Origin: a phage
Sequence record: PZ445443.1
Direction: 5' to 3' (one strand)
DNA length: 64,000 bases
Below are positions 15,742-61,555 of this stretch, piece by piece; position 1 is the first letter of the stretch, and each line of letters begins with the position of its first letter. The position numbers and the translations under genes were made by a program. The notes under the pieces are model-generated. The model made no database searches. It saw only the letters and a program-made list of their open reading frames with translations, and had not been told where the DNA came from.

Positions 15742-16161
15742 ATGAATATTAAATCTGATAATCCGGCATATAGCTTTGATAACGCTTTTTGTCACGGTCC
15801 GGCGGCGAAAGGTTTTGAAATTGATGGTAAACTAGTTATTGTCAATGTTGACGGGGAAGAGGTTGCAGTGTATCCGGTGGCAGACGTTAAAAGCCGTTTA
15901 CAATGCCGCATCGATGTTACCGCATATCAGCTTGATCCGGTCCGCGTAGTCTCCCTGGTCCTGGAGGAAGAAATCAAAGCAATGCACCACAGCAATAAGT
16001 TTATCGGTGACGCGCAAGATAATATGAAGGTATGCCGCTATAAAGTTAATGAAGTGCTTAAAGAATATGGATTTAAGGATCTGATGATCAAACGTGATGA
16101 AAAATTTCGTTATCGTAACGACCTGGCAAATCGAATCTATGAAATATACGAATCATTATAA
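15742..16161 (+). CDS. hypothetical protein
   Basis: ATG with AAGAGG RBS; 139 aa. Confidence 0.6.
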   Translation: MNIKSDNPAYSFDNAFCHGPAAKGFEIDGKLVIVNVDGEEVAVYPVADVKSRLQCRIDVTAYQLDPVRVVSLVLEEEIKAMHHSNKFIGDAQDNMKVCRYKVNEVLKEYGFKDLMIKRDEKFRYRNDLANRIYEIYESL

Positions 16162-16179
16162 TTTTTTAACTGAATTATC

Positions 16180-16206
16180 AAGGGGCTTAGGCCCCTTTCT
16201 TTTTGT
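16180..16206 (+). terminator. intrinsic terminator
   Basis: AAGGGGC-tta-GGCCCCTT hairpin followed by TCTTTTTGT. Confidence 0.65.
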
Positions 16207-18665
16207 CTGCTCTTCCCCTACCATAAACGGCCATACATGGCAAGTGGAATAATTGACGAGCCATCAATCCCACACACTGTACAAATATACATGTAAAATA
16301 ACTATTGCATAACTTTTCATTGTGTGGTAGCAGGGCCATTTTTACACGTTTTTCCTTCCAAAATTGCACGTAATGCAGCATTTGCACAAAATTTAACCTG
16401 ATGCATATCTTCAATAGCTTGTCAACAACTAAAAATCTTTATAAGTCATACACTTACATAACTACAAAAGCGTTTTCTACGTGAAAAATCGAGTATAACT
16501 ATAGCCGCCAGACCTCAGAATTTACGTACGCTCGACATTCTATAGCCTGCTAAGCATTTATTCCAACCATAGAATAACGGAATAGTCAATACCTGCATAA
16601 AATAATTATTCGTGTAAACTGCATAACATAAATCGGCCCAGGTGTCAACATTTTTCGTAAACAGTCCGAAATTATCACTATGAGTTATCATAAACAGGGA
16701 AATCTTTAGTCGTCTAATGTTTACTGTACATTACTATACTGACTGGAATCATTAGATGACTAAGAGAAAGATAAGAAATAATTAACAATACAATTATTTT
16801 ATCTGTAACAATAAGGCAACTATGCAAACGAATGGCATGGCGCGACGGAGTCGCGACATAATATAAAAGCAGTAACCATCACCCCCGTGATAGTTTGTCT
16901 GCAAACTATTAATCAGATCATAGTTGCCTTGTATTTAGTTAATCATGACATAACAAGCAAGGCAACTATAGATCTGCTAATAGTTGCCCTGCTTTTATAT
17001 TATGTCATAGAAACACCCGAAGGGGTGACCAAAGGTCACCTGGCATGGCCAGTGAAAGATTATTAACTTGCTAATAGTTATCATGCAAACGAATGGCATG
17101 GCTGATTATCGGTGTGTAAACAGTCAATCATGTAAATGGTTAGCATGTGAACAATCAGGAATGTAAACAATCCAGTGTGTAAACTAATAGGTGTGTAAAA
17201 GTGTCATGTTGTGTCAGTTAGGTCACATTATGTCATATTGTGTCAGACAAGTTTTTCTCCTCTTTGTCAAGTGCTGCATGAAAAATTTACAATCTGGTAT
17301 GGTAGCATTTTTGCGGCCCTGTTTACATTCAGGGGTGTATGTATAATCCTTGTTGTGTGGGCGTTTAGACGTCTGGACGGTCAGAAGTCTGCAGGTTAAT
17401 ATCTAATCTATTGGCTGCTAACTATATCCCACACAAATAGTAAGAAATATGATTGTTATATGCGTAAACTGTAACTCATGTTATCAATCCCTGTATGTAT
17501 CGCCAGTGGTGCGCATAATGGGTATTATGTTAAATTGCCCGTAATGATAAAGGTTCTCACAATGATAGGTATTCTCATTCACCCCCACAAAATAGATTGC
17601 AAATGTTGTGCCACTGTGTGAACGGCCTAGCCTATTAATTTGCCTCACTGCCTCGATATTTGAGAATTGTTATAAGAATGAGAAGTATTCCCATTTCGTC
17701 CGCCTGGCAGCACTCCTGTAGGTCAGGTCAAAATCGTGGTAGAACTGGACCTGTTCAGATATTTCTGGCTGACTCTTCAGGTCTGTGTGGGAAAAGCCAA
17801 CCTCTCCGGCGGGGCAGGGGATAGGTCAATTAAAAAATTTACGTGGTGTATGAAGCGCTCTTCAGGTAAGGCAGGTATTATGGGATGAAACCCTCTTCAG
17901 GCAATGATATTTGTGGGTGTGATATTTGCTGGAAAGCCAGATATGACGGGACTCCCGGCGGGGCAGGGGTGGTACAGACAGGGAAAATATGAAGGATGTG
18001 GTTGGGTAGATTGATCAGACAGGTAGAGTATGGAATATGTTACAAGTATGTTAAATATGGAGGTTGAATATCTGTAGGATTTGTGTGTAAAATCAAAGAC
18101 TTAAGTGGTGTTGTGGTATTTTCTATAAATAATTCAAGTTTAATAGGTGATATTTGTCTCTATCCGCTTTGTGTGGTAAACAGATTCAGATGAGATTGGT
18201 TTACAAGTGTATACATAATATACAAATTAAAGATACAAGAAACCCCCCTCCCCCTTCGGCTACCATTCACCTTTTCCTCTGACTGGTACTTAAACACTTA
18301 TTCAGACTCTTCAGGTTATCACCTATATATCATATGGCAGTGACTGGTGTCCTCCGGCCCCTCTTTCGTCACCCGTCCGCTTCGCCATGCTAATGCCATA
18401 GCCAATGGTTCGGTTGTTCACCCTGTTCACTCAGGTGTATCTCCATACCCCTTCAAACCGAAGAGAACAGAAAACCCGAATTACTCGGTAAAAGAAAAGA
18501 GAAGAACTTAATTTTATCAGGATAGGCAAGAATGTCAAGGCATGACTGCTCACTAAACAAGCAAACAGTCATGTGTGGGAGGTAAGTGATTGTGGTGGTA
18601 GGAAATTTAGTTGAAAGATGTGTTATAGGTGCTTCCAGCACTTTAGCCGGGCAGCTAATTGTGTG
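16207..18665. other. 2.5 kb ORF-free repeat-dense region between convergent gene blocks (candidate origin, packaging/injection-control region or ncRNA locus)
   Basis: No credible ORF with RBS; 20-bp direct repeat ATGCAAACGAATGGCATGGC (16822, 17083); TAGTTGCC iteron-like motifs; palindromes CGCGACGGAGTCGCG and GGTGACCaaaGGTCACC; GTGTGTAAAC run about 17120-17200; CTC(C/T)CGGCGGGGCAGGGG twice (17802, 17952); CTCTTCAGG 5-6 times. Confidence 0.6.
18511..18539 (-). promoter_or_regulatory. sigma70-like promoter on minus strand (TTGACA-17-TAAAAT) firing into the ORF-free region
   Basis: Reverse complement of 18534-18539 is TTGACA, of 18511-18516 is TAAAAT, spacer 17 bp; no CDS downstream. Confidence 0.45.
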
Positions 18666-18881
18666 TCAGTCCAGCGGTTCATCCTCTACTTCACTGAAAT
18701 CAATGTTCATGGTCTCCTCCCAACCATCGATCTCAGCACAAGAGTGGAGTTCTTTAGGGTTTACTCCCAAAGCCTCAGCAACAGAGTCTATATTTAACAC
18801 CTCTGGCAGGTATGATTCATCAAATTCAAGGTAAATCAGGCCACGAGTGTTGTCAGCCCCACCAAATATTTCTATCTTCAT
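18666..18881 (-). CDS. small acidic protein (MKIEI-start family)
   Basis: 71 aa ORF, acidic C-terminus. Confidence 0.5.
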   Translation of the reverse strand: MKIEIFGGADNTRGLIYLEFDESYLPEVLNIDSVAEALGVNPKELHSCAEIDGWEETMNIDFSEVEDEPLD

Positions 18882-19002
18882 GAAATCTCCTCTGGAAATG
18901 AGAGTGTGAACAGGGTTTTATGCGTTCCAATACGCTGGAATTATACACGTTTGCCTCTTCAGGCCATGCTTTAGCATGAGGAACCTGTGTGGGCTCGGTG
19001 CT

Positions 19003-60742: not shown

Positions 60743-60817
60743 GCCCTGTTAGCTTAGTGGATAAAGCAGCGGCCTTCTAAGCCGTTGACACTGGTTCGAG
60801 TCCAGTACGGGGTGCCA
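60743..60817 (+). tRNA. tRNA-Arg (anticodon TCT), CCA encoded
   Basis: Hand-folded cloverleaf: 7-bp acceptor stem (two G-U), anticodon loop CTTCTAA, T-loop TTCGAGT. Confidence 0.7.
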
Positions 60818-60821
60818 AATT

Positions 60822-60908
60822 GGGGAGTTATCCCGTAGAGGTAGCGGTGTAGACTGTAAATCTATTGTCATTGCGACTCGGGTGGTTCGACTCCACCACT
60901 CCCCACCA
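60822..60908 (+). tRNA. tRNA-Tyr (anticodon GTA), long variable arm, CCA encoded
   Basis: Perfect 7-bp acceptor stem GGGGAGT/ACTCCCC; anticodon loop CTGTAAA; T-loop TTCGACT; 87 nt. Confidence 0.7.
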
Positions 60909-61022
60909 AATTTATATTTTTAGATGCATAAATAATACAGATAATGGCATTGATATTTATCGTCGTTTATACTAGTCACTAACTGCTCGAAAATCAGTGT
61001 CATTATCAGTATAATTTATAAA

Positions 61023-61113
61023 GGAGGGTAGGGAGCAATGGTGCTCAAGCGGTCTTGAAAACCGTCCCGTTGAGGATGACTCGATGATGGTTCGATTCCA
61101 TTACTCTCCGCCA
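61023..61113 (+). tRNA. tRNA-Ser (anticodon TGA), long variable arm, CCA encoded
   Basis: Acceptor GGAGGGT/ACTCTCC; anticodon loop CTTGAAA; T-loop TTCGATT; 91 nt. Confidence 0.65.
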
Positions 61114-61211
61114 CATTGTTGACCTTGTAATTAAGCGAAAGTCGGAAGCAGAACCGGATTATCAAATGTTACAGTCGTCATCGCCGACTAGCAACATGGT
61201 CAACATACTGA

Positions 61212-61308
61212 GCTAGGTAAGCCCTTTGGCAAGGGCGAGGATTTTTAATCCTGAAAATAGACGAGGTAGTCGTTGAATACATAGGTGGTTCGATTCCATC
61301 ACCTAGCA
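61212..61308 (+). tRNA. atypical tRNA-like gene (possible UUU anticodon, oversized variable region, no encoded CCA)
   Basis: Perfect acceptor stem GCTAGGT/ACCTAGC and T-arm GGTGG-TTCGATT-CCATC; anticodon arm non-canonical (AGGA-TTTTTAA-TCCT); 29 nt between anticodon and T stems; 97 nt. Confidence 0.4.
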
Positions 61309-61315
61309 CCTTTTT

Positions 61316-61391
61316 GCTGATGTAGCACAATCGGTAGTGCAATTGATTTGTAATCAATAGGTTGTAGGTTCAAGTCCTGCCATCAGCACCA
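61316..61391 (+). tRNA. tRNA-Thr (anticodon TGT), CCA encoded
   Basis: Perfect acceptor stem GCTGATG/CATCAGC; anticodon stem ATTGA/TCAAT with loop TTTGTAA; T-loop TTCAAGT. Confidence 0.75.
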
Positions 61392-61392
61392 A

Positions 61393-61467
61393 GGCCCTGT
61401 AGCTGGAAGGTTCAAGCAAGCGACTCATAATCGCCAGACGGTGGTTCAATTCCACCCAGGGCCACCA
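61393..61467 (+). tRNA. tRNA-Met or tRNA-Ile2 (anticodon CAT), CCA encoded
   Basis: Perfect acceptor stem GGCCCTG/CAGGGCC; anticodon loop CTCATAA; T-loop TTCAATT. Confidence 0.7.
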
Positions 61468-61478
61468 AATAGTAAATA

Positions 61479-61555
61479 CTCCGCGTAGCTCAGCTTGGTA
61501 GAGCGCCTGATTTGGGATCAGGAGGTCGAGTGTTCGAATCACTCCGTGGAGACCA
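61479..61555 (+). tRNA. tRNA-Pro (anticodon TGG), CCA encoded
   Basis: Acceptor CTCCGCG/CGTGGAG; anticodon stem CCTGA/TCAGG with loop TTTGGGA; T-loop TTCGAAT. Confidence 0.7.

Follow-up and report, generated by a model that had tools for sequence, protein, structure and literature searches.

The window analysed here is a stretch of 64,000 nucleotides from a phage (sequence record PZ445443.1), to which all coordinates refer, and this report concerns a gene-free gap at 16162-18665 that lies between a block of plus-strand genes and a block of minus-strand genes and contains, at 17246-17704, a 459-bp segment known from close relatives as a direct terminal repeat (DTR). A megablast search with the 2.7 kb around the locus matched 121 phage records at 86-96% identity, nearly all of them Escherichia Vequintavirus, and the phage is, as judged by sequence, an rV5-like myophage of this genus. 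The gap is the longest stretch of the window that is free of open reading frames (ORFs): its 2,424 nt at 16162-18585 hold no ORF of at least 80 amino acids (aa), and the runner-up in the window measures 922 nt. Its features are listed below, with the strand where one applies.

16180-16207, plus strand: intrinsic terminator found by a terminator scan, with the hairpin AAGGGGCTTAGGCCCCTT followed by a T-run; it ends the plus-strand gene block.
16208-16804: AT-rich non-coding spacer, recognised by composition (GC 34%), in which no ORF is maintained across relatives.
16805-17102: iteron and inverted-repeat module, found by repeat scan and bounded by a 20-nt direct repeat.
17009-17058: presence/absence mini-element of 50 nt, with a hairpin and the GGTGACCaaaGGTCACC palindrome; missing from 6 of 11 aligned genomes.
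17108-17245, plus strand: hypervariable short-repeat arrays that abut the putative left cut site, with TGTRAACA-type repeats at 17108-17199 and a 10-nt-period array at 17201-17245.
17246-17704: DTR of 459 bp, GACAAGTTTTT...CGTCCGCC; present as a single copy here and at both ends of the virion DNA in relatives.
17543-17695: AATGATA-N4-TTCTCA motif, with two copies in tandem (17543 and 17561) and a further, palindromic one at 17677/17679.
17705-17850: indel hot spot with 40% of columns variable or gapped; the first insertions are at 17712, 7 nt beyond the putative right cut site.
17773-17970, plus strand: two modules in the same orientation, CTCTTCAGG ... TGTGGG ... CCGGCGGGGCAGGGG, and a third CTCTTCAGG at 17858, all from repeat scans.
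18241-18504, minus strand: near-invariant non-coding block of 264 nt, delimited by conservation, whose start coincides with the transcription start predicted for the promoter that follows.
18511-18538, minus strand: near-consensus sigma-70 promoter, TTGACA-16-TAAAAT, with a TG-extended -10 element, 11 of 12 matches and a predicted start near 18504.

Eleven genomes were aligned for a coding test, in which all gap ORFs of at least 30 aa were examined (21 ORFs, 30-75 aa). None of the 21 has a third-codon-position bias, and stops or frameshifts break nearly all of them in the 10 relatives; the real genes on either side have 7, 4 and 25, and 8, 3 and 38, variable sites at the three codon positions. 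The region is non-coding, in agreement with the preliminary description, which had seen no credible ORF in it. The gap is present in all 121 relatives and lies in rV5, unannotated, between ORF164 and ORF163, while deposited annotations range from 0 to 14 ORFs and are mutually inconsistent. The up to 14 tiny ORFs that some depositors have annotated here might be taken for the remains of decayed coding sequence (pseudogenes), a reading to which we give virtually no credence, since no ORF is maintained or biased by codon position, the annotations differ among records and the gap is found in every relative. On the same evidence from ORF integrity, codon positions and inconsistent annotations, related phages do not have genes here that are frameshifted in this sequence, a possibility that had been raised when the gap was first noticed.

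The HdK5 record carries an exact 459-bp copy of one segment at both ends, and this segment maps to 17246-17704; the EdH4 and YN3 records (different laboratory and year) carry the same repeat at both ends, with the boundaries GACAAGTTTTT... and ...CGTCCGCC. The end copies of these three relatives are 458-459 bp long and 100% identical, and all map to the same interval. Korf et al. gave a terminal redundancy of 458 bp for EdH4 and HdK5 (PMC6563267), and PhageTerm gave a non-permuted redundancy of 459 bp for LL12, at coordinates 104,966-105,424 (PMC6658697), which in our own alignment fall exactly on 17704 and 17246. The boundaries are identical in the four genomes with determined ends. Those GenBank records that start or end inside the gap do so at just two positions, and at least nine open at either boundary.

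The conservation pattern follows these limits. The segment is 458-460 bp long and free of indels in 117 records, and the conservation profile of the 11 aligned genomes steps at both of its edges, with 23% variable columns inside and hypervariable, indel-rich zones that start no more than 10 nt outside each boundary. Left of 17236, 59% of columns are variable or gapped, and the alignment becomes indel-free from the TTGTGTCAG/ACAAG junction onward; it stays so through the CCGCC/TGGCAGCA junction, and insertions of 8 to ~90 nt begin at 17712. A sister clade of uncultivated Vequintavirus known from metagenomes only, here called clade B (L005, which is IMGVR_UViG_3300045988_159287, L135 and L136), has no close GenBank relative in this region, and its non-coding DNA is mostly unalignable with the exception of three islands; conservation persists in the ~50 nt of the repeat that lead up to the right boundary, and there the similarity ends. 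In KPP-1, which belongs to another genus (Mydovirus) of the same subfamily, a 514-bp DTR with twofold coverage has been reported, and it sits at the equivalent gene-poor convergent point. Phage Jab has a terminal repeat of 475 bp and a Phapecoctavirus one of 328 bp, and records of the Phapecoctavirus group also open in the homologous region.

Given the repeat at both record ends in relatives, the ends called by PhageTerm and the shared record openings, the gap is very probably the genome-end, or concatemer-junction, region of Vequintavirus, with the 459-bp DTR at 17246-17704 and flanks that would carry cis signals. In window orientation, the left end of the virion DNA is placed at 17246 and its right end at 17704. 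The region had been described as convergent, which holds on the circularised map only; physically, it would be the two ends of a linear genome.

A competing reading is headful packaging with circular permutation, under which the region would be only a pac site and the 459-bp "repeat" an artefact of assembly or analysis. Circular permutation is assumed for these genomes in the rV5 paper, and PhageTerm returned "circular permutated" for four bov phages, with a headful call for BpE1AUH. According to the authors of PhageTerm, transposase libraries obscure termini (PMC5557969), which may explain the conflicting reports of permutation. We regard the headful alternative as very unlikely, because base-identical boundaries come from three groups (LL12; HdK5 and EdH4; YN3), the conservation and indel pattern shifts exactly at those boundaries, coverage over the repeat is twofold in a relative of another genus, and an artefact would not give the same 459-bp limits again in genomes with differences of 5-10%. 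Several points nevertheless weigh against placing the genome ends here: the permuted or headful calls in Vequintaviruses just named, the assignment of the termini by transfer from relatives that are 94-97% identical across the repeat, the chance that some boundary-opened records copy earlier records and are not independent end determinations, and the derivation of the roles of the flank elements from architecture and conservation only.

The core identity of the locus is already known, as the 459-bp terminal repeat was published for close relatives in 2019, and the finding is in this sense largely explained and ordinary for the genus. The redundancy of LL12, HdK5 and EdH4 is the same element, with boundaries identical to the base, a length of 458-459 bp, 94-97% identity and a position in the same convergent non-coding gap. 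The papers on these phages give coordinates and length only (PMC6658697, PMC6563267); the flank elements, the promoter-driven block and the hypervariability at the boundaries are undescribed in them, and the iteron/inverted-repeat module, the hypervariable arrays at the left cut and the 264-nt block have not been described so far.

A packaging region had been among the candidates of the preliminary description, and rightly so in that physical ends and a 459-bp DTR lie here, although the terminal repeat itself went unrecognised and the analogy drawn with T5 came from the wrong taxonomy. An injection-stop or first-step-transfer region of the T5 type would suit a repeat-rich non-coding stretch in general and be compatible with a location at the genome end, where T5 is repeat-rich as well. 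However, T5 belongs to a different phage family, and its repeat is coding and ~10 kb long against 459 bp here (PMC5557969). All megablast matches are to Vequintavirus and none is T5-like, so that taxonomy and repeat size refute a T5-type region, which has next to no chance of being correct.

In most of the ~120 Vequintavirus records, the opening point is arbitrary and the genome is taken to be circular or permuted. Ends at 17246 and 17704 would fix the orientation of the genome and stop spurious ORF calls in the gap, of which some records hold up to 14, and correct ends are needed to reboot or engineer therapy-relevant E. coli phages from synthetic DNA.

In the mechanism that we propose, the virion DNA would be linear and non-permuted, starting at 17246 and ending at 17704 after one full genome length, with the 459-bp segment at both ends. 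A circularised assembly would merge the two DTR copies and set the left-end flank (17705-18665) beside the right-end flank (16162-17245), and with the two flanks joined in this way, the convergent gene blocks would seem to be separated by 2.5 kb without genes. On the model of the T7-type DTR class, replication would produce head-to-tail concatemers with one repeat per junction, and terminase would nick sequence-specifically at both boundaries; in the class of short exact DTRs, the repeat arises when staggered nicks undergo 3' extension, and such extension would duplicate it here (PMC5557969). The flanks would supply the cis signals, namely the iteron/inverted-repeat module and the helically phased short arrays on the left of the repeat and the same-orientation CTCTTCAGG/G-rich modules on its right, while the repeat itself would contribute a protein-binding motif. 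We infer, weakly, that the flank repeats and modules, which lie within ~450 bp of each cut, are most likely sites for terminase and/or for a replication or end-binding protein.

Arrangements of this kind have counterparts in other phages. T7 has short-repeat arrays beside its repeat and a promoter that reads into its junction, and the T7/T3-type DTR shares with the present one fixed non-permuted ends, a short exact repeat and non-coding surroundings. The two differ in the length of the repeat (459 bp here versus 131-231 bp), in the genome that carries it (a 137-kb myovirus versus a 40-kb podovirus), in the junction-facing promoter, which here is of the host sigma-70 type and not of the phage RNA polymerase type, and in the presence here of the iteron/inverted-repeat module; they have no sequence similarity. 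The terminase recognition sites of lambda (cosB), P1 (pac) and SPP1 (pac) consist of repeated elements beside the cut, and at this locus, too, clusters of short repeats are found no more than a few hundred bp from a putative sequence-specific cut, with the CTCTTCAGG modules 70-270 bp from the right boundary and the 10-nt-period array ending at the left one. The likeness to these sites is architectural, without motif similarity, and the present locus would have two cut sites 459 bp apart, not one. Studies of this packaging class have been confined almost entirely to T7-like podoviruses, and the flanks offer a compact set of its cis elements that is open to testing.

On the left side, which would be the right end of the genome, the terminator at 16180-16207 is the same element that is annotated in the Murica and HdK5 records. 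The spacer behind it has 23.6% variable columns, can be aligned in clade B only at 16399-16508 and ends in a 56-nt stretch of 21% GC (16750-16805) that adjoins the iteron module. All of the repeats that had been listed for the gap were recovered, and they are much denser there than in the rest of the window. The 20-mer direct repeat ATGCAAACGAATGGCATGGC stands at 16822 and 17083, and the module between also holds a perfect 18-nt inverted repeat (16855-16872 and 16989-17006). Its ATAGTTGCC iterons, at 16815, 16921, 16961 and 16981, alternate in orientation, and the iteron-like motif that had been noted in both orientations, TAGTTGCC, occurs four times in alternation, a 33-fold enrichment relative to the rest of the window. 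Both reported palindromes are there as well (CGCGACGGAGTCGCG, within the module, and GGTGACCaaaGGTCACC).

The left half of the module (16805-16935) has 4.6% variable columns, compared with 23.6% in the flank (Fisher p = 8.6e-8). Clade B, as seen in L005, has the same layout made of other sequences: a direct-repeat pair 243 bp apart, iterons of its own and a perfect 17-nt inverted repeat starting GACATAATA. The repeats are thus conserved in layout even in clade B, where a lack of conservation would have told against the earlier account of the region. Near-invariance of the left half, together with an arrangement that clade B keeps with different repeats, suggests that the module is functional, and changed sequences in a kept arrangement are the pattern expected of sites that co-evolve with a specific binding protein.

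Two further elements lie between the iterons and the repeat. The mini-element at 17009-17058 has no second copy in the window, and extra copies occur elsewhere in L006, L128 and L135 (three copies); being present or absent in close genomes and having copies elsewhere, it behaves like a small dispersed insertion element. The arrays at 17108-17245 differ in copy number among genomes, including an indel of exactly one 10-nt unit. The repeat run that had been placed near 17120-17200 corresponds to GTGTGTAAA-type repeats at 17108-17199, and the 10-nt-period array that follows, GTGTCATATT x 4.6 (17201-17245), ends exactly at the left boundary.

The left-flank module (16750-17102) could instead be a replication origin, with the iterons as binding sites of a phage initiator that would melt the adjoining AT-rich DNA. 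The 56-nt stretch of 21% GC lies directly beside the iteron cluster, the iterons are near-invariant within the genus, and the module is rebuilt with different repeats in clade B, as for sites that co-evolve with a binding protein. Iteron-type origins such as lambda ori and plasmid oriV share with it the repeated 9-13-nt sites beside such a stretch, in an arrangement that here is kept between clades. In contrast to those origins, the iterons alternate in orientation at irregular spacing and do not form a phased direct array, and DnaA-box-like sites with at most one mismatch are not enriched in the window (7 versus 3.9 expected, none of them perfect). Clade B, on the other hand, has three tandem perfect copies of the DnaA-box-like TGTGGATAA in the region equivalent to the repeat, which favours an origin; the triplet lies at L005 7839-7886, and degenerate TGTGTGG motifs are found at the clade A counterpart.

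The rV5 authors also saw a switch in GC/AT skew in this gap, the one thing that they note about it, which would agree with an origin, but the change in transcription direction to which they ascribed it explains it equally well. The proteins encoded on either side have no Pfam match, fall only into PHROGs of unknown function and contain no recognisable initiator domains, no identifiable initiator gene accompanies the module, and the adjacent ORF164 is absent from HdK5. The same architecture fits a terminase recognition site. We consider an origin possible but on balance unlikely. The homologue of ORF164 (15742-16161, phrog_12277), a protein of 139 aa and unknown function, is encoded in every case directly before the terminal non-coding region, with no gene in between, and is 91-92% identical across Vequintavirus, clade B and a Phapecoctavirus of a different subfamily; its deletion in HdK5 indicates that it is dispensable.

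On the right side of the repeat, which would be the left end of the genome, the CCGGCGGGGCAGGGG pair that had been reported ~150 bp apart has its copies at 17806 and 17955, and the multiple copies of CTCTTCAGG amount to four in the region and one at 18955, all on the plus strand. The second module (17885-17983) is one of the only three islands that can be aligned with clade B, at 77-79% identity. A scan of viral contigs with CCGGCGGGGCAGGGG gave nothing usable, the pattern being too unspecific.

Inside the repeat, the AATGATA-N4-TTCTCA motif is probably a protein-binding site. It has 16 matches in the window against 3.1 +/- 1.7 expected, a count reached by none of 100 shuffles, substitutions among genomes are confined to its N4 spacer, and it carries a repeat_region annotation in the deposited records of naswa, navn and magaca. 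The motif resembles the consensus of the E. coli Fur box. Closer matches to that box are found at the termini of KPP-1 and the Phapecoctavirus, where Fur 7-1-7 palindromes with 1-2 mismatches (e.g. TGATAAGGATTATCA) cluster at or beside the terminal repeats (L010 4347-4964 for KPP-1 and L007 6669-7656 for the Phapecoctavirus). Next to the DTR of KPP-1 lies, in addition, a perfect inverted repeat of 21 nt. A screen of LL12 on the Keio collection found only lipopolysaccharide genes to be required, which implies that no non-essential host factor is needed for plating.

The same motif recurs in a second ORF-poor stretch of the window (5190-5850), which is built of two tandem modules. Close Fur-box-like sites lie there at 5517 (TTGAATGATAATCATTCTC) and 5652 (AAATGATAATGATAACCGTTCTCATT), each followed by ~40 C/G-rich nt; these modules have no homology to those of the right flank, and the stretch is not otherwise homologous to the terminal region. 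A candidate plus-strand promoter at the left edge of the repeat (17264-17293) was rejected, as 7 of the 11 genomes lack the T that closes its -10 hexamer.

The near-consensus minus-strand promoter that had been predicted beyond the right flank is there, at 18538-18511 with 11 of 12 matches. Its hexamers are invariant, with a spacer that differs in sequence and length in L006, and clade B has TTGCAA-17-TATAAT in the same role, again with variable spacers. Promoter-like sites as a whole are not significantly enriched (16 found versus 10.8 +/- 3.4 expected), and the termini of KPP-1 and the Phapecoctavirus lack an equivalent strong promoter. As had been described, the promoter would fire into a non-coding stretch: the block at 18241-18504 shows no coding signature in the codon-position test. 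Only 8 of its 264 columns are variable (3.0%), compared with 21% in the adjacent ORF163 coding sequence (p = 1.4e-10); it is 97-100% identical in 118 GenBank records and has a homologue of ~70% identity in nine clade B sequences. From its 5' side, the block comprises a CU-rich leader, a leader hairpin with a U-run (18476-18488), internal stem-loops and, at the 3' edge, G5AG6 in clade A or G5-6TAG5 in clade B, followed by AT-rich DNA. Its 5' edge is sharp, and its 3' end has no canonical terminator.

Inside the block of clade B, a 26-nt segment with CCTGAAGAG, the reverse complement of CTCTTCAGG, is present or absent within an otherwise conserved transcript, the sequences dividing into L005, L135 and L154 versus L136, L147, L148, L155, L158 and L160. 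The CTCTTCAGG copy in that block is for this reason taken to be dispensable.

We see the chances as evenly balanced that the block and its promoter form a gene for a structured non-coding RNA (ncRNA), an early transcript of the host RNA polymerase that would act as a regulator or decoy, which would be compatible with a genome terminus at this locus. The conserved block extends from the predicted transcription start to a G-run, varies far less than the adjacent coding sequence and has no coding signature, and the promoter hexamers are fixed between variable spacers in two clades. The leader hairpin with its U-run is maintained through different sequences, being terminator-like by scan in both clades. 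In an RNAalifold consensus of eight transcripts, 94.8% of cells are paired, versus 45-52% when the partners are slid by 1-3 columns, and compensatory pairs number 13 versus 0-4 in the slid controls, values that none of 500 shuffles reach; one hairpin within clade B shows a C-G > U-G > U-A series. These counts are to be read with the caveat that the structure was predicted from the sequences tested and that all compensatory changes belong to one split between just two independent clades.

Other results count against such a gene. Single-sequence folding of the block is not better than that of shuffles on either strand, with minimum free energy z-scores of -0.79 and -0.34, the RNAalifold covariation term is small (-1.5 to -3.5 kcal/mol), and several helices are formed by a CU-rich and a GA-rich arm, a combination prone to promiscuous pairing. 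The invariance could reflect a DNA-level signal instead. In Rfam 15, no family matches 16100-18750, where a plant miRNA model comes closest (E = 4.5), and the gathering score is reached in the window by tRNAs elsewhere only. E. coli genomes have no similarity to the block; a core 20-mer of it has five matches in bacterial genomes, which is chance level, with no flanking similarity where this was checked, and a metagenome scan for a third clade of the block returned clade B and chance matches only. In our literature search, we came upon no study that had examined the transcriptome of these phages, mapped their origin or dealt with a pac site. The earlier suggestion of an ncRNA locus accordingly fits 18241-18504, where near-invariance and covariation coincide, while the rest of the gap shows no RNA signal.

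If the ncRNA gene exists as proposed, the host promoter, 0.8 kb to the right of the repeat, would drive a functional, conserved and probably structured RNA of ~265 nt toward the repeat. This minus-strand RNA would perhaps be early and read toward the junction. The adjoining 17705-18240 has a strong positive GC skew (+0.36), which makes the downstream region of the RNA C-rich and G-poor, and one may speculate that such a region would suit Rho-dependent termination before the repeat.

Transcript-primed origins, among them those of ColE1 (RNA II), the primary origin of T7 and the mitochondrial light-strand promoter with conserved sequence block II (LSP-CSBII), share with this unit a strong promoter, a conserved and possibly structured transcript, which here ends at G5AG6, and AT-rich DNA beyond it. 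The likeness is purely architectural, and the transcript here points toward a nearby genome end. We think it rather unlikely, if still worth stating, that the 264-nt unit represents a new family of structured phage RNAs with a role linked to the genome end and not to gene regulation. Such an RNA would either prime replication through a persistent RNA-DNA hybrid, as ColE1 RNA II and mitochondrial CSBII do, or license the processing of the junction by terminase, as has been suggested for transcription into the concatemer junction of T7. As a candidate new phage RNA, the conserved promoter-driven block, together with the undescribed architecture of the flanks, keeps some interest in a locus whose core is known.

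Two minor observations concern the records and the window at large. About 19 GenBank records of the MG0656xx series, named "Campylobacter phage" with C. jejuni as host, are 90-96% identical to E. coli Vequintaviruses across the region, which suggests that they are mislabelled or contaminant genomes. In the tRNA cluster of the window (60743-61555), ARAGORN calls a tRNA-like gene of 99 nt at 61212-61310 with a 4-base anticodon (atcc), which scores only 35.5 bits in Rfam.

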